Shown here one piece after another: positions 4,155-60,795 of a stretch of 60,795 bases of DNA. The position numbers were made by a program, and so were the translations under genes. The notes beneath the pieces were generated by a model that saw only the letters and a program-made list of their open reading frames with translations, was not told the origin of the DNA and made no database searches. The DNA comes from an uncultured virus (IMG/VR IMGVR_UViG_3300031111_000236) (Duplodnaviria; Heunggongvirae; Uroviricota; Caudoviricetes): the IMG/VR virus record IMGVR_UViG_3300031111_000236. One strand, 5' to 3'. Within the stretch, counting starts at the first letter, position 1. Each line of letters begins with the position of its first letter.

Positions 4155-7100
4155 ATGAACAATCGAATCCTGACGTTTGGAATAGTACTGGCATTGGTAT
4201 TCTCCGCTCTGGCCATCATAGGTGGTAACTCTGGTGCGGACCTGCTTCCTTTGCCAGAGGGCGAGTATTACGCTTTCCCAGATGAGATGATAGAGGGTAA
4301 CAGTACCCCCTTCGCTCTGGAAGAAGTGAATACTTACCCAGGTTTGCTCTATGGGCCTACGGCTTGGACCAATAACACGGCTCCTAATGTGGGTGAGGTG
4401 GAACTTTTACACATCAACGATACTGATGTCACCGACTCATGGGTTTCCTGGGTGAATACGAGCAACGAAGAGGGAGAGTTCCTTAACGTATACAACAACT
4501 CTGTTGGCGAGTACGCTGGCGGTGCTTGGGCTACCTATGTCAACACACCAGTTGACTGTGAGTTCAAGTACTCTATAGTGGGACTCGATAACAATACAGC
4601 GTTCTTGTATAACGAGACTGACCTGGTGGCTGTCTATGGTAGTGATACCAACGATGATTACGAGGTTCTGGGAGCAAGTGGTAACTATGTGGATGAGGAC
4701 CTTATTGTGGTATCTCTTCTGACTCACGAATTGGTCGGAACGACTGACTACTACAATATCTCCATCGCCGTTGTGAATACTCTCGACGAGACCACTGAAG
4801 ATATTGTCCCTGTCAGGAACTTTAGTTTTGATAGTGACATGGGCAGTTACTTCAGAGCCTCCTCGTGGAACTTCGCTTACAATACACTCTTCTACCAGAT
4901 AACTACACAGGAGTACTATGTTGTCTTCACCTGTGACCCGAGTACTCTCGGGTCCGACCCAGATACCTACGGTGCTGACTACACAGAGCTGTACAACGGT
5001 ACATGGGTCCCGTATGGCGAGTACAACTTCATCAAGCCTCTGTCGGATAGTGAGTATGTTGCCATAATCCAAACCAACGAGAACATCACTATGATAGTGG
5101 ACGACGAACCTGTCGAAGTAGAGCTTTATAACGACTTTGCGGGTAGCTATATAGAGCGTTCGAGATTGATAGGAGCTGATAACAACTCTCTGTTGATTTC
5201 TACACAGGTCAGCATGATGAACGTGATTGTGGAGTACGATTGGGACCTTGTGAACCATACAATGTTCGTTTACAGTCTCGACGGGCCTCCTTACGAAAAT
5301 GTAGGACACACTTCTACAGTTCTGGGAGATGACCTGGTAATCAACTATCGTGGTAAAGATAATCCACCGAGAGTGTTTCCCAAGACTCTTCTCAACGATA
5401 CTATCGATATATTCGATGTATTCTACTACCCTGAGACAATCACCTTGAACTATACCAACACGTCATGGGTAGTGGACCTCATACCGATGGGAGAGTCCAT
5501 GAACTTCCAGTGGCCAGATGTCTCTGGTGTTTATACTGTACTGGCATTTGGTAATGGGACGAACTATATGTTCTTCGCCGTAGTCAACGCCACTTCTGTA
5601 GACACCAACAGGGTTACTGCCGTCACTCTCGTAGACCAGGAATCTCTTGAGGGAGATATAAGCTCAGTCGAGAACGTTCTTGGTTACAGCAACAGCACCG
5701 TTGGTGAGCTGAACGGTAGTCTCTCATATGTGACCTCTTCTGCAATATGGAACACTACCGTTATGAACCTTCTACATAATGTGACTGTTCGCAGTGAGAA
5801 CGGTACACCGCTCACGAACATTACCACTATGTATACTGTCTACCCGAAGCCTATCTATGTTACATACGATAACGGCTCGGTCTACGTTATGGAAGTGTAC
5901 AATTACAAGAACGTTGCTCCTTTGTGGTTCAACAGTTCTCTGGTTATGCACGTCTGGAACGGTTCCTCTTGGGTCATGAACCAGACAATATTCAACGAGT
6001 CAGCTCATACATCTTATGAGTGGCGAGTCGTCAACGTGTACGCCGAGGACGGTATTATATACATGGTGAACCAGTCAAGGGAGTTACCTTCTCATGGTTG
6101 GAACGTCACTCTGATGGCCTACAATGGTACTGCATCCTATCAGTTGGAGAATTACACTCTCGACATAGGGTACGAAATTGTGTCGATGAGGGGCAATCAT
6201 ACCATCGTCCGCCTCAGTGAGAGTTTAGGGGCTGGAATCATCGTAGACGGTACAACCATCGAGAATGGGTGGTTCGTGACCGAGAATATCGCTGGTATCA
6301 ACGATGAGGGTGACTACTTCCTGTGGTACTTCGTAGAGGAGGTCAACGGCACTCTGAATTACAAGGCTGGTGACTACGAGATAGTGACTGGTCTCCCGTC
6401 ATTTAGAGAGTTCGAGAACGCTCCTCCAGAGGTTCTTGATGAGAACTTCGTCGTGGGCGATAGCTCTATGATAGGAATGGCCATGCTGTCTGCTCCGTCT
6501 ATAATGTGGCTCGACGAGCATCCTACTACCATCCCCGAGATGAATGGTAGCAAGCTCGGTGGTGTCTACGTGGCTGGACCGAACACTATCTATGTCCTGA
6601 CCTACGATACAAGAACGAGTCCTGCTGGAAGCAAGGGTATTGTATCTTACCTCTACGAGGTAGACCTGAGCGAACTGAGGGCTGGTCAAGAGCACTTCAT
6701 CATGAACCTTGAAGAGGGTTGGAACCTTGTCAGTGTTCCAATGGATGGTCTGACGAGCGAGTACTTCTTCGAGCAGGGTGAGGGCAATGTTACGGCGTTC
6801 GCTATGAGATACTCGAACGGGACCTACGTCATGGAGATATATGACAGGACTAACAGGACTGTCTACAACCTGTCTCCCGACATGGGCTTCTATCTCTTTG
6901 TGGACATAGACCTGAGCATCGAGATAAGCGACTACGTGGTCACCAACGTCTCCTATAACCTCTCATCGGGGTGGAACCTCATAGGTCTACCCTACGGTTA
7001 CGAGGAGACTGTAAACGACCTCGTGGACGACCTCAATCTCACTGCTCTTGACGCTGTGGTCGCCAGGGCGGAGACTGGAGAGTACGTCTGGTTCATCGAT

Positions 7101-7202
7101 GACTTCACAAGGGGTACACCCTATAACATCGAAACGGGCTATGGCTACTTCGTCTATGTCTCCGAGGATAATGTCGAGTTCACGCTCGACACCTCTCTGT
7201 GA
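4155..7202 (+). CDS. large secreted surface (S-layer/adhesin-like) glycoprotein, paralog 1
   Basis: Signal peptide, acidic and beta-rich, many N-x-S/T sequons, two C-terminal LxxGWNL(V/I) repeats; SD GAGGTGA at 4141. Confidence 0.8.
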   Translation: MNNRILTFGIVLALVFSALAIIGGNSGADLLPLPEGEYYAFPDEMIEGNSTPFALEEVNTYPGLLYGPTAWTNNTAPNVGEVELLHINDTDVTDSWVSWVNTSNEEGEFLNVYNNSVGEYAGGAWATYVNTPVDCEFKYSIVGLDNNTAFLYNETDLVAVYGSDTNDDYEVLGASGNYVDEDLIVVSLLTHELVGTTDYYNISIAVVNTLDETTEDIVPVRNFSFDSDMGSYFRASSWNFAYNTLFYQITTQEYYVVFTCDPSTLGSDPDTYGADYTELYNGTWVPYGEYNFIKPLSDSEYVAIIQTNENITMIVDDEPVEVELYNDFAGSYIERSRLIGADNNSLLISTQVSMMNVIVEYDWDLVNHTMFVYSLDGPPYENVGHTSTVLGDDLVINYRGKDNPPRVFPKTLLNDTIDIFDVFYYPETITLNYTNTSWVVDLIPMGESMNFQWPDVSGVYTVLAFGNGTNYMFFAVVNATSVDTNRVTAVTLVDQESLEGDISSVENVLGYSNSTVGELNGSLSYVTSSAIWNTTVMNLLHNVTVRSENGTPLTNITTMYTVYPKPIYVTYDNGSVYVMEVYNYKNVAPLWFNSSLVMHVWNGSSWVMNQTIFNESAHTSYEWRVVNVYAEDGIIYMVNQSRELPSHGWNVTLMAYNGTASYQLENYTLDIGYEIVSMRGNHTIVRLSESLGAGIIVDGTTIENGWFVTENIAGINDEGDYFLWYFVEEVNGTLNYKAGDYEIVTGLPSFREFENAPPEVLDENFVVGDSSMIGMAMLSAPSIMWLDEHPTTIPEMNGSKLGGVYVAGPNTIYVLTYDTRTSPAGSKGIVSYLYEVDLSELRAGQEHFIMNLEEGWNLVSVPMDGLTSEYFFEQGEGNVTAFAMRYSNGTYVMEIYDRTNRTVYNLSPDMGFYLFVDIDLSIEISDYVVTNVSYNLSSGWNLIGLPYGYEETVNDLVDDLNLTALDAVVARAETGEYVWFIDDFTRGTPYNIETGYGYFVYVSEDNVEFTLDTSL

Positions 7203-7217
7203 GAGGGTCGCCAATCA

Positions 7218-7250
7218 GAGGGGAGCTTAGTCTCCCCTCCTCTTTACCTT
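7218..7250 (+). terminator. hairpin terminator
   Basis: GAGGGGAG-cttagt-CTCCCCTC followed by a pyrimidine run after the stop. Confidence 0.5.
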
Positions 7251-7295
7251 TAGATGTCGCATACCGTGTCAGTCACGAACAATGAGGTGCATAAA

Positions 7296-15464: not shown

Positions 15465-16458
15465 CCCTATAAGGCATGGCCTCTCGGCTCGTGGTATTAG
15501 GAGCTTTGCCTATCGTGAGGGTTTCATCGAAACGAGGAACATCGATGATAAGTGGCTTGATGAGAATTTCCACCTGAGATATCCTCGAAGGCATAACGAA
15601 AGCCTATTCAAACTGTTGACAGAGCCAGAGGAAGTGGAGTCACGAGCCTTCACAGACAGTGCTACTGGTAAGCTACATGGCGGAATCATAGTGAGTCGTC
15701 ACCCCGACGTGTTTGAGGACTTCAACAAGAAATATGGTGAACAGATACAAAGCGGTGAGCTTGATATAAAACCAGACTTTATGCTGGATGCCGATGACCC
15801 TGTATCGCTCTTCTTCATGGTGACCAACGGTGACATGGAACTTGTGCGTAGGACACCTGACCTTCAGGACGCTCTTGTAGCGTCTATTCTCAAGCGTGTC
15901 CGTGATGGTGATTATAATCGGATTTACTATTATCTTGACAGTCTTCCCACCGAAACTAAGATGTACCTCTTGCCCAAGATGATTAACGCAATCATAGATG
16001 ACCGACGAATTGAGAGGATAGTGAAAGAGACCCTCTTGAGGGGGATGTACGTCACTTCTACTGTTGGACACTCGCAAGATGACGTGGAGGTTCTGCTGAA
16101 GCTCTACAAACAGATAATGAGGAGGAAACTCAAGGCTGTCGATGGGTGGGACCTAACGGGTATATTCACACTCTGGGATTGGATGCCTTACGATGCGAAG
16201 GACATAGACATACTCTATGCTTACGAGAACAGAGCCAATATGCACTCTATAAACTACTACGTGCTTCCGACTTCCAAGAGCCGCCCGAGGGGTCGTGAAC
16301 TCTTGGATAGGTTGGGAACCTCTTGGGACGTTGATAGAGTACACAAGGCTTACAAGGACAACCTCTACTATGATAGGAGCCTCCCGCAGAATAAGAAAAT
16401 GCTCAACAGGACGACTAAGTTCCTACTCGATGAGAGGGGCAAGAAGGGGTGGTCTTGA
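15448..16458 (+). CDS. RH-tag protein, DIxPDFLLD family member 3
   Basis: TWPTNPIRHGLSARGIRSFAY; DIKPDFMLD. Confidence 0.8.
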   Translation: MTWPTNPIRHGLSARGIRSFAYREGFIETRNIDDKWLDENFHLRYPRRHNESLFKLLTEPEEVESRAFTDSATGKLHGGIIVSRHPDVFEDFNKKYGEQIQSGELDIKPDFMLDADDPVSLFFMVTNGDMELVRRTPDLQDALVASILKRVRDGDYNRIYYYLDSLPTETKMYLLPKMINAIIDDRRIERIVKETLLRGMYVTSTVGHSQDDVEVLLKLYKQIMRRKLKAVDGWDLTGIFTLWDWMPYDAKDIDILYAYENRANMHSINYYVLPTSKSRPRGRELLDRLGTSWDVDRVHKAYKDNLYYDRSLPQNKKMLNRTTKFLLDERGKKGWS

Positions 16459-17372
16459 TGGGATGGCCCAAGAGTCCACTCAGGCACGGTCTATCAGGAA
16501 GAGGTGTCAAGAGCTTCGCCTACAAGCCCAACTTCGTTAGCTACTCACTGCCGCCTCGCTCAGAGGAAATGAGACTCAACGCTGTGATTAATCTGCACGA
16601 CCTCATGCTCACACCTACGAAAATAGAGCAGGAGCACGACAGCATAGCTCTCTATCTCAACTTGGCTGATATGAATAGGTTTGACAAGACCTTTGGTGAA
16701 AAGCTCAGGGAAGATGATATTCAGCCAGACTTTCTTCTTGATGCGGCTCCGAGAGCGTCTCCCCTCTTGTACTTCGTGACAAACGGTAGCAGGAAGCTCT
16801 TCGAGGTGAACGACTCGCTCAGGGCCTCTGTAGTTGTCTATATGCTCACTGTTATGGACGACCCTAAGTTCTGGTCCAATAATGACTATGTGTACTTCAA
16901 TGTGTTAACACCTGATGAGAAGATAGTGCTACTCCCCAAGATGCTACGGAGAGTGGCCGCTCTTGACCCTGGTAATAGGGGCACTATTCTCAAGGACCTC
17001 TACATACTGTCAGTGGCTGGTATGAGCGTAGAGGATAAGAACGTTTTCCTGAAGACGCTTAATAAGGCTGTTAGCGAACAGAAGCAGAACATAGCTAACT
17101 CCCTGTCCCTCGACACTATGGCCGATGCTGTCCGCAAGATGGACACCCAGGACATGAAGGTCTTCTACTACATGACCAAGAACGGTAAGCTCGGGTGGAG
17201 TCTCCTACCAGACACAGATGACCTGGAGCACTTCTTATACCTTGTGGAGCAGACGGGGACCAACCTCTTGGAAGAAATCAAGTACGGGCAGATTCATTAC
17301 AACTCTTCTGAGCTACCGAGCTTCTTCCAGAGTCAGGAGTACGAAGAGCTTCTGGAAGATTTAGCTATATAA
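16458..17372 (+). CDS. RH-tag protein, DIxPDFLLD family member 4
   Basis: TGATG overlap; GWPKSPLRHGLSGRGVKSFAY; DIQPDFLLD. Confidence 0.8.
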   Translation: MGWPKSPLRHGLSGRGVKSFAYKPNFVSYSLPPRSEEMRLNAVINLHDLMLTPTKIEQEHDSIALYLNLADMNRFDKTFGEKLREDDIQPDFLLDAAPRASPLLYFVTNGSRKLFEVNDSLRASVVVYMLTVMDDPKFWSNNDYVYFNVLTPDEKIVLLPKMLRRVAALDPGNRGTILKDLYILSVAGMSVEDKNVFLKTLNKAVSEQKQNIANSLSLDTMADAVRKMDTQDMKVFYYMTKNGKLGWSLLPDTDDLEHFLYLVEQTGTNLLEEIKYGQIHYNSSELPSFFQSQEYEELLEDLAI

Positions 17373-17428: not shown

Positions 17429-17686
17429 ATGGCTGACTTCGGAATACTTGGCCTGACCTTTGGACTGGCATACTCTGTCGTGTACCTGGCTCTTCTCGTG
17501 TTGAGAGTAGTACTTGTACCCTCGATAACGATAAGCGCATACAGGAACGGCAGGAGCGTGCTGTTCTGGGGTATCTTAGCCATGATAGTACCCATAGTTG
17601 CCCTCGTCTGCTTCATGTTCCTTGGGAACGAGAAGAAGAGGGACGTGTGCTACGCATGGAAGGACTGTGCCAAAAAGGGAAAGTAG
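17429..17686 (+). CDS. small membrane protein
   Basis: Two hydrophobic helices; basic tail with a Cys pair; GGTGAT SD. Confidence 0.7.
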   Translation: MADFGILGLTFGLAYSVVYLALLVLRVVLVPSITISAYRNGRSVLFWGILAMIVPIVALVCFMFLGNEKKRDVCYAWKDCAKKGK

Positions 17687-17701
17687 AACCCATACCACAC
17701 G

Positions 17702-17947
17702 GTGGTACGCATGGCGAGGAAGAAGCAAGAGGCGTGTCTAATTCGACATCCGAAAGGACACTGCCTGGACGATAACATATTGAACACGGTCATAGTGTTC
17801 ATTGGCTGGATTATAGTCACCGTTTCTGGTGCTATAGTACTGGCCGCTGTCATAGCTTTCGTCCCTCTTAATGTCTGGACCATACTCACTGCATTTGCTG
17901 TGATGTTCTTCGGGTTCCTCCTGACCCAAGTCGGTATCAAAGACTAA
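17702..17947 (+). CDS. small membrane protein
   Basis: Two hydrophobic helices. Confidence 0.65.
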   Translation: MVRMARKKQEACLIRHPKGHCLDDNILNTVIVFIGWIIVTVSGAIVLAAVIAFVPLNVWTILTAFAVMFFGFLLTQVGIKD

Positions 17948-17958
17948 CAGGTGGTCAT

Positions 17959-18657
17959 ATGGCCTTCGATAATGAACCTCTGAGACACGGACTATCAAGA
18001 CGGGGTATTCCCCATAGCAAGAGCTTCGCTCAGAGTCCTGCCTGTCCTGTGGACAGTATAGGACTACACTGCAATGTACCAGATTCGCAGTTCGACCCGA
18101 GACAGCTACAAACGGGCATACGTATCGAGATGGAGGAGCACACGAAGAATCCTGTGGTCGCCAAGGAGATAGCTAAGGACCATCTCTCAGAGCACCCTGA
18201 TTACTACTCGTGGCTTGTTGAGATGGAGATGGCGGCGGCGGCGACCAATACCTTCAAGAAGCTCGTAGCGTCTCAGGACACCAGCAAGTTCGAGAAGAGT
18301 AACCAGAACCCCGTAAGCCCACCGAGACAGGCCCCTCCGCAGGACTTGGCCTTCGGTTATGCGACATTGCCTAAGTACAAGGGCGGCTCGGGTGCGGGGA
18401 AGCTCAAGGTCGGTAAGAAGGTCACTAAGCCCTCGCAGTTCAAGGTTGGTGAGACCTATATTGCCGTGAGCAACCAGTTCAAGAGCATCAATGTGATGAA
18501 GGTCAAGGAGAGGAGTGACGGCCCGTCAAAGGGTGTTATGGCCGTCTTCGTGGACCCCAATGACCCGAGGAAGAAGCGTCTGAGCGACGATAGGGAGTTC
18601 TTCATACACGACTTCCAGTTGAAGTATGACGAGGACGTGTACTACGAGGTTAGGTGA
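17959..18657 (+). CDS. RH-tag protein with DUF5661-like domain and a second C-terminal domain
   Basis: FDNEPLRHGLSRRGI..SFA; GIRIEMEEH..AKEIAKDHLSEHPDYY. Confidence 0.75.
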   Translation: MAFDNEPLRHGLSRRGIPHSKSFAQSPACPVDSIGLHCNVPDSQFDPRQLQTGIRIEMEEHTKNPVVAKEIAKDHLSEHPDYYSWLVEMEMAAAATNTFKKLVASQDTSKFEKSNQNPVSPPRQAPPQDLAFGYATLPKYKGGSGAGKLKVGKKVTKPSQFKVGETYIAVSNQFKSINVMKVKERSDGPSKGVMAVFVDPNDPRKKRLSDDREFFIHDFQLKYDEDVYYEVR

Positions 18658-18866
18658 CACTCTTGGATTTTATTGCCATAATAATGTTCTTTTTAGCCTT
18701 TGTTACTGGACTGGCGAGTATATTTTTCTTTATCCTGAGTATTGTCATGTTTAAAAAGGTTCGCCCATTGAGGGGGACGTTATTCATGGTTGCGAGTGTT
18801 TCCCTGTACGTTACTCATGCTGTGATTATGGTACTGTATGTACTGGCTGACTATTTCAGTAGCTGA
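18654..18866 (+). CDS. small membrane protein
   Basis: Two TM helices; GTGA overlap. Confidence 0.65.
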   Translation: MTLLDFIAIIMFFLAFVTGLASIFFFILSIVMFKKVRPLRGTLFMVASVSLYVTHAVIMVLYVLADYFSS

Positions 18867-18876
18867 AAAAGAAAAG

Positions 18877-18952
18877 TAGCGGCGGACAGATTTGAACTGT
18901 CGGTCTACAGGTTATGAGCCTGTCGGGATATACCTGGCTACCCCACACCGCT
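18877..18952 (-). tRNA. tRNA-Met(CAT), initiator-like
   Basis: Reverse complement AGCGGTG...ACAGG-CTCATAA-CCTGT...GACAG-TTCAAAT-CTGTC-CGCCGCT-A; A1-U72 pair; TATA ~35 nt upstream and T-run downstream on the minus strand. Confidence 0.93.
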
Positions 18953-19001
18953 ATTACAAGGTAACCTTCTTATAGGCGAGATACCATATATAAGCGTTCC
19001 T

Positions 19002-19181
19002 ATGGCAGTGATTACTACAGCGTTTGCACTCTTGACAACCCTCTTGCTCGGTATAATCATGTTAGCTTCTGGTCTTGTATTGTTGTTATTCGGAGCTATC
19101 TGGATTTACATCGCAGGATGGTTTATAGTATCTCCAATTAAGGACTGGTGGCGATGTCGTAGGGTCGATAGAGTCAAATAG
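19002..19181 (+). CDS. small membrane protein (59 aa, below the ORF-track cutoff)
   Basis: MAVITTAFALLTTLLLGIIMLASG...WWRCRRVDRVK, translated by hand. Confidence 0.55.
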   Translation: MAVITTAFALLTTLLLGIIMLASGLVLLLFGAIWIYIAGWFIVSPIKDWWRCRRVDRVK

Positions 19182-19255
19182 CTCTCATTGTCTTCGTATT
19201 TAATATCGACCCCAAAGTTTTTATATCTCACAGGAGTCTTACTCATTACTACATA

Positions 19256-19656
19256 CGCAAGCACGGACCCACGGCAGGAACGTAGGGCACAAGTGCATCC
19301 CATCCCACCAGTTTTGGTGGACCCCTCTAAGTGAACGCACCGTGCCATATATGGCTGTTGGATACGTTACGGCCTGGAGTTTCTCCTGGCACGGCAACCA
19401 ACCGCTCCCGTGTTCTTAATGGAGCGGTCAAGGTAATCTACTACCCCGCCCGAAGGGGCAATCCCCGAGAAGTGCCCGTTCCTGCCCACGTCCCATCACA
19501 TACCCTATGCACAAGTTCCTGGGGACGGAGGAGATGTGACCTCTGATAACCAGTAGGGTTGGCGGCATTTGGGGTGGAGACAGTGAATTAGCTGTCGTCG
19601 AAGCCCTCTTTGCTGTGTGGGCAGGTCTACCCTGATACCGTGGGTCTGTGCAAGCG
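19256..19656 (+). ncRNA. large structured non-coding RNA of unknown class (~390-400 nt)
   Basis: 14-bp end-to-end stem 19261-19274/19638-19651, second long-range stem, many hairpins, own promoter at 19187-19225, no credible ORF. Confidence 0.75.
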
Positions 19657-19690
19657 AAGTTTTATATATTGAAGAGGCATAGTTTGTACT

Positions 19691-19855
19691 ATGTTGGTCA
19701 TATCCTTTCTATCGACCCTGATTTTACTCAGCATCGTTCTCATCGTACTCGGTGTGGGCGGGTACTACATCTACAAGATGATAAGGTACAAGCCAGGACA
19801 AGAGTCTTGTAAGAGGGGTCCTGATGGTAAGTGCGTAAAGCCGAAGAAGCGGTGA
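19691..19855 (+). CDS. small membrane protein (54 aa)
   Basis: One TM helix plus tail SCKRGPDGKCVKPKKR; TATA at ~19660. Confidence 0.6.
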   Translation: MLVISFLSTLILLSIVLIVLGVGGYYIYKMIRYKPGQESCKRGPDGKCVKPKKR

Positions 19856-22032: not shown

Positions 22033-22300
22033 CCAAAAACCCCCCAATATAGTAATATTATACGACACTATTATACACATATGTATAACATTTTTCGGGC
22101 ATATTCACCCATTTTAAAAAGTGCTTCGCATGATTTCGCAGTCGAGATGTCTTTTAGGCCCCATATTCAAAATCACGAAACCGATAAAAATTCAAGGGTG
22201 TTCAGAACAGATGTGTCCATTCTATATTGTCTTTGGGACTCGACCCCTCTCGAAACACCTTATTACATACCCCCGAGAATATAACCGTGGTGATAGCAAA

Positions 22301-23155
22301 GTGGCCGAAACAGAATCAATCGGTATGTGCCTGTCTGCGAACGCTTCGGAACATCCTGCTCTTGAGGGCAAGGAGTCCGCCAAGGTCGGAACCAAAGAGT
22401 GGGCCGAGCATAACAAGAACATAGACGTGGGGTGCGCCAACGGGTGTACCTACTGCTACGCCTATGGGATGCTCGGACTGAGGTTCAAGCTCGTCAAGAG
22501 TCACGAGGAGTGGATGTGCCCGAGGGCCAACTCCAATGGCGAGAAGGAGCGACCCAAGAAGCTCGATGGGCGCATCATGTTCCCTACGAGCCACGATATC
22601 CATGTCGGTAACATCGACAGGGTGGTCGTGTTCCTCCGCAGGTGGTTGGAGGTTGGGAACGATATTCTCGTCACTTCTAAGCCTTCCTATGTGTGCATCA
22701 AGAGGCTCTGTGACGAGTTAGGTGAGTTCAAGGACCAGATAACCTTCAGGTTCACTATCGGGTCCATGAACGACGACACGACTCGTTTCTGGGAGCCAAA
22801 GGCTCCCCTCTTCGAGGAGAGGCTCAGGGCATTGGTGTACGCCTACTCCAAGGGCTTCAGAACCTCCGTGAGTATGGAGCCATTTCTGGACTCAAGTGTT
22901 GTCAGAGTCTTTCACAAGTTGAAGGACTTCGTGACCGACACTATCTGGGTCGGGAAGATGAACTACATCGACCAGTACGTCAAGAGGGACGAGATGGACG
23001 CTGAGAGTCTTGCGTTCCTCTACGAGGTCGAGTCTTGCCAGACGGACGAGAGCATCTGGAGGCTCTACAACGAGCTGAAGAGGGAGTCAAAGGTCCGCTG
23101 GAAGGACAGCATCAGAGAGGTCGTTGGCCTCGCAGAGTACGACGGGGTAGCTTAG
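22301..23155 (+). CDS. radical SAM protein, spore photoproduct lyase (SplB)-like / phage-type
   Basis: GCANGCTYCYA, LVTSK, WEPKAP..EERL, SMEP; GGTGAT at 22289 before GTG. Confidence 0.8.
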   Translation: MAETESIGMCLSANASEHPALEGKESAKVGTKEWAEHNKNIDVGCANGCTYCYAYGMLGLRFKLVKSHEEWMCPRANSNGEKERPKKLDGRIMFPTSHDIHVGNIDRVVVFLRRWLEVGNDILVTSKPSYVCIKRLCDELGEFKDQITFRFTIGSMNDDTTRFWEPKAPLFEERLRALVYAYSKGFRTSVSMEPFLDSSVVRVFHKLKDFVTDTIWVGKMNYIDQYVKRDEMDAESLAFLYEVESCQTDESIWRLYNELKRESKVRWKDSIREVVGLAEYDGVA

Positions 23156-28865: not shown

Positions 28866-30128
28866 ATGGCTGTGATAGTGATACCGAAGGCAGGGCGAGG
28901 CGTGTCGAGAGCTATGCTGGACCAGATGTATATAGACTTCTCCGACCAGCTCAAGAGGTTGCAGAGACAGATAGGTTTCAGGATATCTGCCCGTGGTTGG
29001 TGCTACATCATGGAGCAGAACGGTCTTATCAATAAGGACCAGTTCGACCTTGTGAACAATGCCATCAACAACTGCCGTAAGAAGGGATACCTACCTGTGG
29101 ACTTTACAGCCGAGGAGTCGGCCCGTCAGTTCAAAGGCGTGGAGGAGCCTACCACGGAACCGCCTGGCGTGTGGCTTAGAGACTATCTAAACTACATATT
29201 CAGGTGCGAGAACACGTACATACCTGAGTGGTGGGCCGACGAGGAGTACTACATACAGATGGTAGTGGAGAAGGTGGACTTGGTGACCCTGTTCCGTCCT
29301 ATCTGCGAGAAGTTCCATATCCCAATAGCAAACGCTAAGGGGTGGTCCTCTATATCTCAGAGAGCAGAATACGCTCGCCGCTTCAAGGAGGCTGAAGCAA
29401 ATGGTCTCAAGTGCGTCCTCTTGTACTGTGGTGACCATGACCCTGATGGTCTCCGCATAGGCGAGTTCCTGCGTAAGAATCTTGCCGACATCAAGGACAT
29501 CACATGGAACGATGGTGAGGACGGCTACGACCCTGTTGACCTGGAGATAGACAGGTTCGGGCTTAATCACAGTTTCATAGCGACCAATGGGCTGACGTGG
29601 ATAGACAATCTCATCACAGGCTCGGGCAAGAATCTCGCATCACCAACCCACCCGAACTACGACATGGAGTACGTACAAGAGTACCTCAAGAGGTACGGTG
29701 CTCGCAAGTGTGAGGCGAACGCCATCGTTCAGAACCCAAAGGCTGGTCAGGACCTGTGCCTACAGGCCATTGAGAAGTACCTCGGCACGAACGCAGAGGC
29801 AAGGTTCCAGGTTAAGATAGATAGGGTGCGTGAGTGGATAGAGGAGTATCGTCAGAAGCTCGGGATAGAGCATCATCTCACCAATGCTATAGGTGAAATC
29901 AACAAGGGCGAGGCCCAGAGACTCCCCGTTCGATGCCCCTCTTGTGATTTTGTGTATGGGGATAAAATGTATGACCAGATGGTAGCCGACGACGAGGAGG
30001 AGTGCCCCGAGTGCGGTGCGTACCTTTTGGCTGAGTGTTCAGGGTGCGGCAAGAGGCTCCGCACGGACCTTGAGGACGTTACTGGTCTTGAGGAGTGTCC
30101 CTTCTGCGGAAAGTACAGCCCTGTCTGA
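28866..30128 (+). CDS. Toprim protein of Topo VI A/Spo11-like type with C-terminal Zn ribbons
   Basis: SARGWCY, VVEK, KGWSS, YCGDHDPDG, EANA; four CxxC at the C-terminus. Confidence 0.75.
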   Translation: MAVIVIPKAGRGVSRAMLDQMYIDFSDQLKRLQRQIGFRISARGWCYIMEQNGLINKDQFDLVNNAINNCRKKGYLPVDFTAEESARQFKGVEEPTTEPPGVWLRDYLNYIFRCENTYIPEWWADEEYYIQMVVEKVDLVTLFRPICEKFHIPIANAKGWSSISQRAEYARRFKEAEANGLKCVLLYCGDHDPDGLRIGEFLRKNLADIKDITWNDGEDGYDPVDLEIDRFGLNHSFIATNGLTWIDNLITGSGKNLASPTHPNYDMEYVQEYLKRYGARKCEANAIVQNPKAGQDLCLQAIEKYLGTNAEARFQVKIDRVREWIEEYRQKLGIEHHLTNAIGEINKGEAQRLPVRCPSCDFVYGDKMYDQMVADDEEECPECGAYLLAECSGCGKRLRTDLEDVTGLEECPFCGKYSPV

Positions 30129-37395: not shown

Positions 37396-37459
37396 GAACC
37401 CGTAAGTTTTTATATCTCGCAGGAGAATACGGAAATGAGGTGTCACTATAGACTTAACA

Positions 37460-59445: not shown

Positions 59446-59702
59446 TGAACAAGGACGAGCTTAGGATGTCGCTGTGGTTTGGTGTACTCATCAAGCTCTG
59501 TGGTGGCTTTCTAATCGGCCTCGGTATGATGGGAACCATAGGGTTCGTAGTCACTAACAGGCTGGACATAGCGGTCATGAGCGTGCTCTTGACCATCATC
59601 GGGGTCATTATGCTTGGGCATAAGGAGGACAAATACAATGGACAATGCGGAGCCAGTGATGTATATCATCGTAAACAGCGACCTAAAGATGAGCAAGGGT
59701 AA
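59442..59702 (+). CDS. small membrane protein
   Basis: Two TM helices. Confidence 0.6.
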   Translation: MMNKDELRMSLWFGVLIKLCGGFLIGLGMMGTIGFVVTNRLDIAVMSVLLTIIGVIMLGHKEDKYNGQCGASDVYHRKQRPKDEQG

Positions 59703-60000
59703 GATAGCGGCCCAGGCCGCTCATGTTGCCACTAAAGCCAGTCATTTCGCCGCTAATCAATCTGACCACAGGTTAGATGACTGGAATAAATGGTGGTTAG
59801 GCTCGCATACCAAGATAGTGCTAAAGGCTCCCGAGAAGGCACTCAATGACCTCCTTGAACTTGGAGAGCATGACTGGTGCTTCGGAGTTATCGATGAGGG
59901 TAGGACTGAGGTTGCGAGCGGGTCTCTCACAGCGATAGCCACGATACCGATATTGAAGGGGTCCGCAGGTCCCGCAATCAATGACCTCAAGTTACTGTAA
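59638..60000 (+). CDS. pth2: peptidyl-tRNA hydrolase 2
   Basis: DLKMSKGKIAAQAAH, KIVLK, DEGRTEV..GSLTA. Confidence 0.93.
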   Translation: MDNAEPVMYIIVNSDLKMSKGKIAAQAAHVATKASHFAANQSDHRLDDWNKWWLGSHTKIVLKAPEKALNDLLELGEHDWCFGVIDEGRTEVASGSLTAIATIPILKGSAGPAINDLKLL

Positions 60001-60013
60001 TGGAGATGAGAAA

Positions 60014-60795
60014 ATGTACACGACAGCAGATAGGGAAAACGCCCTACTGATACACGCAGATATGGTGGAGGACACGGCGTACCAGCAGATACAGGAGATA
60101 GTGAAGCATCCAGCCTTTAAAGAGCTGATAGCCATAATGCCAGATGTTCATGCTGGTGCTGGCTGTGTGATAGGCTTCACGGGAAAGTTCAGGAACGCTG
60201 TCATACCCAACATCGTAGGGGTAGATATCGGGTGCGGGGTTCTTACCTATCCGATAGGGAAGGTAGACGTTGACTTCGAGGCTTTCGACGAGCACGCACG
60301 AGAACGGGTTCCTCTTGGCTTCCGTTCGAGAGGCAAGGCTCACCCTTACTTCGAGTCTCATGCGGACGTACAGATAAGGATGGAGCTTATAGAGGACGAG
60401 TTCTATCAGCACTACGGGGTAAAGATGTCAAAGCAACCCGAGCTACAGATAGGTACGCTCGGCGGGGGCAATCACTTCATCGAGATAGATGAGGCTCCTG
60501 ACGGTGAGAAGTTCATCACGATACACTCAGGCTCAAGGAACTTCGGTCTGAAGGTGGCCAACTACTTCCAGAGCAAGGCCAAGAAGCTGATGGAAGAGAT
60601 GTCGCTTGAGGTCCCCGCAGGTCTTGAGTATCTGCCTATGAGTTTCGGTGGTGAAGAGTACATGAGGTGGCTCCACATAGCCCAGGACTACGCCCTCTTG
60701 AACAGGGCTATCATGATGACCGAGCTGTTGGAGTTCTTCGAGCTTCCGTATATGCACTCAAGGTCTACCTTGTCGGTTCACAACTACATCTCAAA
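60014..60795 (+). CDS. rtcB: RNA ligase RtcB (runs off the window; absent from the ORF track)
   Basis: Hand translation: MPDVHAGAGCVIG, VGVDIGCG, GTLGGGNHFIE, HSGSRNFG, HNY. Confidence 0.95.
   Translation, partial: MYTTADRENALLIHADMVEDTAYQQIQEIVKHPAFKELIAIMPDVHAGAGCVIGFTGKFRNAVIPNIVGVDIGCGVLTYPIGKVDVDFEAFDEHARERVPLGFRSRGKAHPYFESHADVQIRMELIEDEFYQHYGVKMSKQPELQIGTLGGGNHFIEIDEAPDGEKFITIHSGSRNFGLKVANYFQSKAKKLMEEMSLEVPAGLEYLPMSFGGEEYMRWLHIAQDYALLNRAIMMTELLEFFELPYMHSRSTLSVHNYIS

Follow-up and report, generated by a model that had tools for sequence, protein, structure and literature searches.

A putative structured non-coding RNA gene of an archaeal-type virus, closed by a stem with bulge-helix-bulge geometry and possibly matured into an RNA circle

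The 60,795-nt stretch of DNA analysed here (IMG/VR record IMGVR_UViG_3300031111_000236, hereafter the window) belongs to an uncultured virus of archaeal type from marine sediment. Positions 19248-19665 of its + strand form a structured non-coding stretch of about 400 nt. What does this stretch encode, and how might the ends of its product be made? An earlier reading made from the sequence alone (the sequence-only reading) took it for a large, structured, non-coding RNA with its own promoter, placed beside a tRNA-Met gene; all the coordinates and sequences given there are present in the window.

The claim that this region holds no credible ORF was upheld by per-codon coding scores, which stayed at or below 0.06 in all three + frames of 19182-19690, compared with 0.21-0.34 per codon for the 29 long ORFs of the same window used as a yardstick. 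The ORFs at 19188-19334 and 19331-19546 scored -0.10 and -0.13, respectively, and no Pfam match was obtained for the latter. Folding was then assessed against shuffled sequence, as had been suggested earlier. The minimum free energy (MFE) of 19248-19665 (+) was -173 kcal/mol (z -5.05), a stability reached by none of 100 dinucleotide shuffles. The opposite (-) strand gave a weaker fold (z -3.28), and 11 of the 117 MFE pairs were G-U pairs, two features which together favour the + strand. The region is also richer in GC than its flanks, and its ensemble diversity is low (41.9, compared with 95.2 +/- 25.8), a lower value being seen in only one of 149 other windows. The background has to be kept in mind when reading these values: the mean z of 42 other 400-nt windows of the genome was about -1.1, and one of them, the coding window 6801-7200, reached a z of -5.6. 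The coding stretch 6780-7260 (z -4.3) had an ensemble diversity even below that of the RNA region, which ranked fifth among 604 windows by GC-corrected MFE. Informal inspection by eye revealed no K-turn, C/D-box or GNRA motif in the RNA, and the only antisense matches in the window were of at most 16 nt with E of at least 1.5, that is, at chance level.

The signals and the tRNA gene surrounding the stretch are the following.

18876..18952 (-): tRNA-Met (CAT) whose end pair is A1:U72; found by ARAGORN and by Rfam (59.8 bits), divergent from the RNA gene
19187..19194 (+): ATTGTCTT motif, 6 nt past the stop of ORF 19002-19181
19209..19225 (+): RNA-gene promoter, made of an ACCC box, a spacer and a TATA-like TTTTTATA box
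19247..19260 (+): short 5' leader, with transcription predicted to begin at about 19247-19248
19657..19668 (+): short T run, overlapping the TATA box of the next gene (next ATG 19691)

The neighbourhood of a tRNA-Met gene was confirmed, 300 nt from the RNA. As for the promoter, one does exist, and its real element is ACCC-N3-6-TTTTTATA, not the ATTGTCTT motif that had been taken as part of it. The window carries 20 ATTGTCTT sites where 2.2 are expected, 14 of them on the + strand and mostly directly after stop codons. This refutes a role as promoter part of the RNA gene; by its distribution, the motif is a general intergenic signal of the virus, not specific to the RNA gene. The ACCC-N3-6-TTTTTATA element occurs at eight sites in the window, all on the + strand, for 0.01 expected. 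One of them precedes the RNA gene and is identical to the promoter at 37404-37425 at 21 of 22 bases. At four of the seven sites in front of protein genes, the first T is followed at 29-30 nt by an in-frame ATG; at a fifth, the ATG is found at 28 nt and opens just a short ORF. The RNA region likewise begins about 30 nt 3' of its promoter motif, and this promoter-to-ATG spacing places the predicted start at about 19247-19248, some 12 nt before the closing stem described below. At the other end, no hairpin-plus-T terminator for the RNA gene was found. The T run is at best a weak terminator, so that read-through is possible.

Fold, coding score and promoter thus support the large, structured, non-coding RNA with its own promoter described in the earlier reading, and the best explanation of these computed features is probably a stand-alone viral gene for a structured non-coding RNA on the + strand.

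Does this RNA belong to a known class? At gathering score, the only Rfam matches in the whole window were two tRNAs. When the threshold was relaxed to E<=10 for 19100-19750, only two spurious matches appeared, to a miRNA (18.6 bits versus 90) and a snoRNA (15 bits versus 50). The Rfam 15 families covered included RNase P, SRP, GOLLD, ROOL, OLE, HEARO, raiA, group I and II introns, small ribozymes and others. The earlier view that the RNA fits no known class therefore holds even at E<10, and divergent RNase P, SRP, introns and ribozymes were rejected on the same ground. A permuted version of a known RNA was rejected as well: local Rfam matches would be expected, and none appeared.

Homologues were sought by several routes. 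A distant-setting blastn of the RNA against 50,697 phage and archaeal-virus records gave no match, and a 22-mer of the stem had none in IMG/VR. The neighbouring helicase, used as an anchor, has only one near relative (P0002, 37%) among 206 matches at E<=0.001. Searching IMG/VR with the single helicase protein returned nothing, and with a two-sequence helicase alignment a single locus (L001) from a phage of bacterial type, which has Shine-Dalgarno sites and lacks the RNA. One locus (L002) was recovered from JGI metagenomes; it has only the helicase and a 28-residue match in common with the window, its Rfam matches are tRNAs only, and its likeness to the RNA does not extend past the 15-22 nt leader. 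Five copies of the leader 15-mer 19246-19260, with one mismatch each, are nevertheless present in L002, directly preceding tRNA-like units and one tRNA-Val; at a BLAST E of 0.07 this is a weak lead. In IMG/VR, the 15-mer was found at 117 loci, every one a single, unrelated-looking match. GTDB genomes queried with RtcB and, separately, with the helicase alignment yielded nothing, and a covariance model of Domain B (see below), run with filters off on the window and L002, found only itself. The single sequencing run listed for this DNA is a DNA run, probably the source; in it only the source contig covered 19261-19651 at >=80% likeness, without variants.

The fold itself was examined next to the helices proposed earlier. 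The end-to-end helix 19261-74/19638-51 (14 bp, one G-U) is present in the MFE fold. The second long-range helix, described as joining 19273-19290 with 19472-19486, is also recovered, as 19285-90/19472-77. Among the local helices, CCACCA/UGGUGG, CCGUGCCA/UGGCACGG and ACCGCUCC/GGAGCGGU belong to the MFE, as do GACAGU/GCUGUC and CGGAGG/CCUCUG, whereas CGTCCC/GGGACG is an alternative pairing outside it. Mean pair probabilities of the confirmed MFE helices range from 0.88 to 1.0. Inside the closing stem, two domains can be defined.

19285..19477 (+): Domain A, multibranch (five to six hairpins), with 19285-90/19472-77 as its closing helix
19481..19625 (+): Domain B, two branches with a 9-bp closing helix, holding the loop pair 19496-501/19534-39

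Folded alone, Domain A has a z of -2.52 (2 of 200 shuffles as good) and Domain B of -3.52 (none of 200). Two tertiary or dynamic features had been suggested for Domain B. The first, a kissing interaction between loops UCACAU (19496-501) and AUGUGA (19534-39), is based on a real complementarity but stays at chance level (P about 0.09): two six-bp loop-loop complements were observed for 0.42 expected, and 8.9% of 2000 shuffles contained at least two. The same 6-bp loop pair, with the same shuffle figure, was considered as a possible link between copies of the kind seen in packaging RNA of the phi29 type; no packaging ATPase was identified near the RNA gene. The second, a conformational switch of 19481-89, did not rise above chance. 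Helix 19481-89/19617-25 forms in the MFE, and the alternative pairing of 19481-89 is better read as a competition that would be gone after processing of the stem base.

The base of the 14-bp closing stem carries a feature absent from the sequence-only reading, a strict bulge-helix-bulge (BHB) geometry, and the virus encodes RtcB.

19261..19274/19638..19651 (+): outer helix h, 14 bp, pair probability 0.99
19275..19278/19631..19634 (+): central helix H, 4 bp, probability 0.80
19279..19281 (+): first bulge, 3 nt; predicted cut 19280/19281
19282..19286/19626..19630 (+): inner helix h', four Watson-Crick pairs and one G-U
19635..19637 (+): second bulge, 3 nt, present in the MFE; predicted cut 19636/19637

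A BHB is defined by a 4-bp central helix and two 3-nt bulges on opposite strands (PMC4090602). All these elements of the archaeal hBHBh' motif, including both flanking helices, are found here. In pre-tRNA, the central helix includes anticodon bases 34-35, and the splice sites fall in the bulges next to it (PMC4090602). Combined with tRNA numbering, this statement suggests that the handedness of the viral motif, with a bulge 3' of the central-helix segment on each strand, is that of pre-tRNA, and the predicted cut positions follow from the same rule.

How exceptional is this geometry? Both strands of the window were scanned, over every pair of positions 40-1200 nt apart, for a 4-bp helix with two 3-nt bulges on opposite strands, an outer helix of >=5 bp and an inner helix of >=3 bp. 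The RNA-stem motif was the best of 576 + strand matches, with 21 pairs of Watson-Crick type and two of G-U type; the runner-up had 17 Watson-Crick pairs and the remainder 14 or fewer. The best of 572 - strand matches had 19 pairs, G-U included. In 13 whole-window dinucleotide shuffles, the best match reached 14-16 Watson-Crick pairs. When G-U was counted as a full pair, one of nine shuffles equalled the total of 23. The chance of finding strict geometry beside a given helix, estimated from 2 million simulated flanks, was 4.5e-4 when the inner helix had to have >=4 bp and 1.2e-3 when >=3 bp sufficed, post hoc values for a motif spotted after the fold had been viewed. BHB-geometry matches in L002 were discarded as G-U-rich products of direct repeats. 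The inner helix is the fragile part of the motif: in the ensemble, its first three pairs have probabilities of 0.17-0.18, and the fourth, at 0.04, is in competition with the pair that closes Domain A. Helix h' is not part of the MFE, and the BHB conformer lies 1.3 kcal/mol above it.

These features lead us to favour, though at somewhat under even chances, a model in which the host splicing endonuclease would cut the stand-alone viral RNA and ligation would close it into a circle of 356 nt. The predicted piece is:

19281..19636 (+): 356-nt piece whose excision is predicted from the BHB geometry; proposed circle

The observed ACCC/TATA motif would start the transcript at about 19248. In the computed fold, the transcript would then enclose two compact domains within the long closing stem, whose base would offer the helix-bulge-helix-bulge-helix shape recognised by archaeal EndA. 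Cleavage by the host endonuclease would fall in both bulges, 3' of 19280 and 3' of 19636. The ends would be sealed by RtcB, an enzyme that the virus also encodes itself, to give an exonuclease-resistant 356-nt circle, with a small hairpin formed from the two stem strands as by-product. Folded as a circle, 19281-19636 retains both domains (-130.1 kcal/mol). As the gene has no good 3' terminator, such processing would set the RNA ends wherever transcription stops. An ORF on the predicted circle was considered and rejected, with stops in all frames and a negative coding score. We can only guess at a function: the circle might be a long-lived protein-binding scaffold or decoy during infection, possibly tied to the viral tRNA and RNA-repair genes.

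RtcB is the ligase of the BHB splicing pathway. The relevant genes lie at the end of the window.

59614..60000 (+): peptidyl-tRNA hydrolase PTH2, archaeal/eukaryal type, adjoining RtcB (Pfam PF01981, E 2.4e-21)
59981..60793 (+): RtcB RNA ligase (Pfam PF01139, E 9e-39), running off the window end

The viral RtcB could thus ligate BHB cleavage products. Its presence is not specific evidence, since phages commonly carry RtcB for tRNA repair (673 phage records); its best relative in a search of longer proteins was 52% identical (P0121). A Pfam scan of 89 ORFs of the window detected no EndA. Archaeal traits of the virus include the leaderless promoter-ATG spacing and the A1:U72 pair of the tRNA-Met. 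The best NCBIfam match of its type-4 UDG is an archaeal model, at 217 bits under the 250-bit cut-off, and NCBIfam Pth2 models also scored under their cut-offs on PTH2. Relatives of RtcB, UDG and topoisomerase indicated no clear host lineage.

According to PMC7714728 and PMC12558985, cutting of a BHB by EndA followed by ligation is the established route to circular RNAs in archaea; precursors of rRNA, introns of tRNA and the 5' UTR of one mRNA are among the known substrates. The viral stem resembles archaeal rRNA stems and tRNA/rRNA introns processed by EndA and RtcB in that a long helix formed by the flanks surrounds a structured RNA, in the 3-4-3 geometry with the inferred pre-tRNA handedness, and in the predicted products, a circle and the joined flanks. 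The 356-nt piece is larger than tRNA introns (11-129 nt, PMC4090602) and smaller than rRNA precursors. It differs in being a viral gene with its own promoter, in that the enclosed RNA is neither rRNA, tRNA nor a member of an Rfam family, and in flanks that form only a hairpin and no functional exon; cutting and circularisation here are predictions.

The model of a processed circle has to be weighed against four other readings. In the strongest, which we hold to be possible if on the whole unlikely, the gene makes a linear, independently transcribed structured RNA, the stem protects its ends and the BHB-like geometry is coincidental or unused. Promoter, lack of coding signal, z of -5.05 and well-defined fold fit it equally, and the weak inner helix (0.04-0.18), together with the one shuffle in nine that matches the motif in length when G-U is counted, speaks for it. 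It is less compatible with the Watson-Crick count, which none of the 13 shuffles came near, and with a conditional chance of about 1e-3 for the geometry. Moreover, a stable linear RNA would need a terminator, and none here is convincing.

An improbable reading turns the same BHB, which fits as well, into a cis-acting intron or leader: transcription would read through to the small genes from 19691 onward, and the 356-nt leader would be excised as a by-product. The weak T4 stop and the missing hairpin terminator agree with this, and a precedent is available, since PMC7714728 describes, for HVO_1309 of Haloferax volcanii, a BHB intron within the 5' UTR, likewise a BHB substrate beyond tRNA and rRNA located upstream of protein genes. 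The viral piece predicted to be excised differs in its large size and extensive structure. With a TATA box of its own 31 nt ahead of its ATG, the next gene also needs no upstream leader. A by-product would have no reason to keep domains with z of -2.5 and -3.5. Joining the flanks gives about 42 codons (counted by eye) with a negative coding score and no credible ORF, in a frame which begins upstream of the predicted transcript start.

That the stretch is a functionless gene remnant or spacer, with a chance fold in a genome prone to fold well, has little to commend it in our view. The background z, the single control window in 42 at -5.6, the rank of merely fifth in 604 and the absence of conservation evidence are all in its favour; against it, promoter, lack of coding signal, closed ends, low ensemble diversity and BHB coincide within 400 nt, and the rest of the genome is tightly packed.

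Least probable, and very much so, is a DNA-level element, a MITE or another inverted-repeat site such as an origin or packaging site: the 14-bp terminal inverted repeats (one mismatch at the DNA level) about 390 bp apart around a non-coding interior do have the outline of archaeal MITEs, with their few hundred non-coding bases between such repeats, and L002 carries a TnpB transposon gene, but the element is single-copy in the data searched (neither BLAST nor the Domain B covariance model gave another copy in the window; no stem 22-mer in IMG/VR, coverage in the source run by the source contig alone), the G-U pairs and the unequal folding of the two strands are features at the level of RNA, the promoter is positioned exactly for the RNA unit, and the region is GC-richer than its flanks, unlike typical origins. 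As to target-site duplication, the flanks have at most a 2-base repeat in common.

How would a BHB-processed viral RNA compare with other large RNAs? GOLLD and ROOL are large structured non-coding RNAs of phages and bacteria whose function is not known, often found beside tRNA genes. The viral RNA shares with them an intricate fold, large size, carriage by a virus and proximity to a tRNA gene. It has no covariance-model match to them, only the tRNA neighbourhood is common to the loci, and its setting is archaeal-type, not bacterial. It is presumably smaller than both, and GOLLD and ROOL have, to our knowledge, no BHB processing stem. The permuted SRP RNA of Thermoproteus is restored by BHB-dependent circularisation, and thus provides an example of a stable RNA, neither rRNA nor tRNA, matured by BHB cutting and circularisation as predicted here. 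The viral RNA is not a permuted copy of SRP or RNase P RNA, as no local Rfam match to either was obtained at E<10.

Large structured RNAs of unknown function are, as far as we know, rare and nearly all from bacteria and phages, and the BHB-dependent circular RNAs known to us derive from cellular rRNA, tRNA and few other transcripts. In literature searches that covered journals other than subscription journals, no viral BHB RNA was found by title under bulge-helix-bulge and archaeal virus, and no such case by title among the matches listed under circular RNA, archaeal virus and splicing endonuclease. We suggest only tentatively, and think it on balance unlikely, that the gene is the first representative of a new class of RNAs, large, structured, circular, encoded by an archaeal virus and matured by EndA and host or viral RtcB. 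It would then stand beside the large phage RNAs as their archaeal-virus counterpart, and no viral gene using an rRNA-style BHB stem would have been known before it. If the circle is indeed built with the host endonuclease and the virus's own RtcB, archaeal viruses would use the RNA-splicing pathway to make stable RNAs of their own, virus-encoded RtcB would gain a use other than tRNA repair, and the locus would offer a compact, testable new RNA for studies of structure and function.

The stretch 19182-19690 follows a short ORF for a membrane protein (19002-19181), ends just before the ATG (19691) of another short ORF and shows no coding signal. With codon usage scored against a training set of 29 long ORFs of the + strand, none of its three + frames exceeded 0.06 per codon, compared to 0.21-0.34 for the training genes. 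Two mechanical ORFs within it scored -0.10 and -0.13, and no Pfam match was found for the longer. Every gene recognised in the window by this analysis lies on the + strand. The RNA gene and tRNA-Met are embedded in a series of five short ORFs (17429-19855; 54-85 codons); the translations of these ORFs appear by eye hydrophobic and membrane-protein-like, and none has a significant Pfam match. Nearby, ORFs 16449-17372 and 17959-18657 share an N-terminal PLRHGLSxRG motif and are likely paralogues; the second matches DUF5661.

The large structured non-coding stretch described in the sequence-only reading was confirmed: all its proposed helices can form, and those that belong to the MFE structure have mean pair probabilities of 0.88-1.0, CGTCCC/GGGACG being an alternative pairing outside it. 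The 14-bp end-to-end helix (19261-74 with 19638-51) gains 3 further pairs outward and encloses two domains:

19285-19477, + strand: domain A, a multibranch of hairpins
19481-19625, + strand: domain B, two branches on a 9-bp closing helix

The + strand of the RNA folds with an MFE of -173.4 kcal/mol (z -5.05; 0 of 100 shuffles as good), compared to z -3.28 for the - strand. Eleven of the 117 pairs are G-U, where the opposite strand would have A-C mismatches. Folded separately, domain A reached z -2.52, equalled by 2 of 200 shuffles, and domain B -3.52, equalled by none of 200. The sequences of this virus generally fold rather well: 42 other 400-nt segments of the window average z around -1.1, one of them, coding segment 6801-7200, going down to -5.6 (-4.3 as 6780-7260). 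In GC-corrected MFE the RNA comes fifth among 604 segments, and its ensemble diversity (41.9, versus a mean of 95.2 +/- 25.8) makes it the second best defined of 150. The lowest diversity of these 150 (32.9, z -4.3) belongs to 6780-7260, at the 3′ end of a 1022-codon ORF with a strong hairpin 3′ of its stop codon, which may be a structured element within coding sequence. The strongest GC-corrected folding-energy residual (-3.5 SD) is at 22455-23055, in a radical-SAM-like ORF (22121-23155).

Directly inside the 14-bp helix we found a bulge-helix-bulge (BHB), the shape cut by the archaeal splicing endonuclease EndA, which the first description had not raised:

19275-78 with 19631-34, + strand: central helix, 4 bp
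19279-81, + strand: bulge of the 5′ strand, 3 nt
19635-37, + strand: bulge of the 3′ strand, 3 nt
19282-86 with 19626-30, + strand: inner helix, four Watson-Crick pairs and one G-U

This helix-bulge-helix-bulge-helix at the stem base has the exact 3-4-3 spacing by which archaeal splicing endonuclease substrates are defined (PMC4090602). In pre-tRNA, according to that paper, the central helix holds the first two anticodon bases, and the adjoining bulges contain the splice sites (PMC4090602). Together with tRNA numbering, this places a bulge 3′ of the central-helix segment on each strand, with cleavage after the second bulge base, a handedness that the motif of the RNA appears to match. Of these elements, the 4-bp helix (probability 0.80) and the 3′ bulge are already part of the ViennaRNA MFE structure. 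The pairs of the inner helix reach ensemble probabilities of 0.04-0.18, and imposing this helix raises the energy by 1.3 kcal/mol.

The main alternative, possible if rather doubtful, is a linear non-coding RNA whose BHB is coincidental. A strict-geometry scan of all position pairs 40-1200 nt apart (outer helix at least 5 bp, inner at least 3 bp) returned 576 hits on the + strand and 572 on the - strand, so minimal BHB motifs are common. The RNA site tops the + scan with 21 Watson-Crick and 2 G-U pairs, the second hit having 17 Watson-Crick pairs and the remainder at most 14; the best hits of 13 whole-window dinucleotide shuffles had 14-16. With G-U weighted as Watson-Crick, one of 9 shuffles equals the total of 23. 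The 14-bp stem contributes much of this score. Once such a stem exists, the chance that strict geometry follows, from 2 million simulated flanks, is 4.5e-4 (inner helix at least 4 bp) to 1.2e-3 (at least 3 bp), figures that somewhat overstate significance because the motif was spotted after inspection of the fold. The runner-up (39007-39026/39576-39595; 10 + 4 + 3 = 17 Watson-Crick pairs, best of 13 shuffles 16) spans 562 nt across a two-ORF junction within coding sequence and may be due to chance.

Transcription signals of the window were as follows:

382-398, 19209-25, 19855-71 and 24926-42, + strand: promoter motif ACCC-N3-6-TTTTTATA, sites 1-4
25497-513, 28810-26, 37398-414 and 45164-80, + strand: the same motif, sites 5-8
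1444, 4108, 19187, 20090, 24021, 27115, 33041, 37989, 47467 and 54833: examples of the intergenic motif ATTGTCTT

The eight promoter sites, all on the + strand, compare with 0.01 expected, and seven stand ahead of protein genes. At four of these seven an in-frame ATG lies 29-30 nt past the first T; at a fifth the ATG lies 28 nt past it, yet opens just a short ORF; the other two have longer leaders. TATA boxes of archaea show such spacing where mRNAs are leaderless, and as most protein genes here have their ATG 28-30 nt downstream of the promoter, the mRNAs are taken to be leaderless. The remaining promoter, 19209-19225 (+), stands before the RNA gene, is identical at 21 of 22 positions to 37404-37425 and places the predicted start near 19248, which is 12-13 nt ahead of the stem. 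The promoters seem to fall into two sub-types: 19218 and 37407 carry AAGTTTTTATATCTC, the other sites TTCTTTTTATAC/T. ATTGTCTT, previously taken as part of the promoter, does not belong to it: its 20 occurrences (2.2 expected; 14 on the + strand) mostly lie a few bases past stop codons, and it is probably a terminator or general intergenic signal of the virus. No hairpin terminator was found downstream of the RNA, where just a T4 run fuses with the TATA box of the next gene (ATG 31 nt on). That gene has its own promoter, which, like the well-formed domains, makes a cis-acting BHB leader or intron serving downstream genes unlikely.

Folding energy alone puts the RNA in the top 1-2% without making it unique; the case for it rests on coincidence with its other features. 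A chance fold in a spacer is quite improbable. Slightly less probable still is an inverted-repeat element acting as DNA, such as a MITE, against which stand the single copy and the RNA-level signals.

The RNA belongs to no known class, as had been proposed: Rfam 15 at gathering score returned two tRNAs only over the whole window, and 19100-19750 at E<=10 gave just miRNA and snoRNA far under threshold. Ordinary RNase P or SRP RNA, GOLLD, ROOL, OLE, HEARO, raiA, group I/II introns and small ribozymes were excluded by the lack of an Rfam match, and permuted RNase P or SRP RNA by that of local matches. No homologue was found by blastn in 50,697 phage and archaeal-virus records, nor with the stem 22-mer in IMG/VR. 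The sole public run containing the window DNA, a marine sediment metagenome and probably its source, has one contig over the RNA region and zero variants. An orphan structured RNA gene is a reasonable reading, resting on one sequence.

By sequence comparison the virus stands very much apart. Among 206 hits of the neighbouring helicase at E<=0.001 there is one near relative (P0002, 37%), and L002, the JGI metagenome locus retrieved for this relative, shares with the window the helicase, a 28-residue match and nothing else. No RNA-like region was found in L002 except a 15-mer leader (BLAST E 0.07), directly before the stem in the window and directly before tRNA-like units and tRNA-Val in L002, a weak hint of a shared stable-RNA leader. 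A domain B covariance model matched itself alone in the window and L002. At L002 1004-1474, four tandem units of ~117 nt, each behind the same 15-mer, combine a repeat of the 3′ portion of the adjacent tRNA-Ser with a stem-loop, of which there are two versions with compensatory differences; the units are not recognised as tRNA by either ARAGORN or Rfam. L002 1-500 holds a TnpB C-terminal end (Cas12f-like TNB domain, E 4e-21), then ~130 nt of non-coding sequence, the expected place of a guide RNA, just upstream of a promoter and seven-tRNA cluster. In the window, the topoisomerase-like protein 28866-30128 (phrog_6247, E 7e-77; 59% identity to proteins of Cellulophaga phages) is far nearer a known virus than any other gene, which suggests horizontal transfer.

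For processing of the RNA at its BHB, the window offers two adjoining genes:

59614-60000, + strand: PTH2, peptidyl-tRNA hydrolase (Pfam)
59981-60793, + strand: RtcB RNA ligase (Pfam E 9e-39), truncated at the end of the window

With the tRNA genes, at least three (1-24 partial, 224-296, 18876-18952), they form a tRNA/RNA-repair module of an archaeal-type virus. Besides PTH2 itself, archaeal-type traits are the A1:U72 end pair of tRNA-Met and a type-4 UDG, for which the archaeal model is the top NCBIfam match (217 bits, under the 250-bit cut-off). EndA was not found among 89 window ORFs scanned with Pfam, so a host enzyme would be needed. RtcB occurs in 673 phage records and, being widespread, is permissive rather than specific evidence. 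EndA cutting at BHBs followed by RtcB or another ligase is an established route to circular rRNA intermediates and tRNA introns in archaea (PMC12558985); a systematic Haloferax study adds one mRNA 5′ UTR to the BHB substrates (PMC7714728).

We propose that the RNA would be transcribed from about 19248, cut after 19280 and after 19636, and ligated into a 356-nt circle (19281-19636), leaving a hairpin in which a 7-nt loop connects the two strands of the stem. Such a circle folds with a circular MFE of -130.1 kcal/mol and retains both domains. In the precursor, 19275-81 can also pair with 19478-84, a competition seen in the sequence-only reading; processing would end it, 19275-81 departing with the flank. 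The circle could perhaps serve as a long-lived scaffold or decoy RNA. Our searches, which covered the open literature, turned up no virus-encoded RNA reported to be processed at a BHB, and the BHB motif together with the RtcB gene provides a concrete mechanism that is cheap to test.
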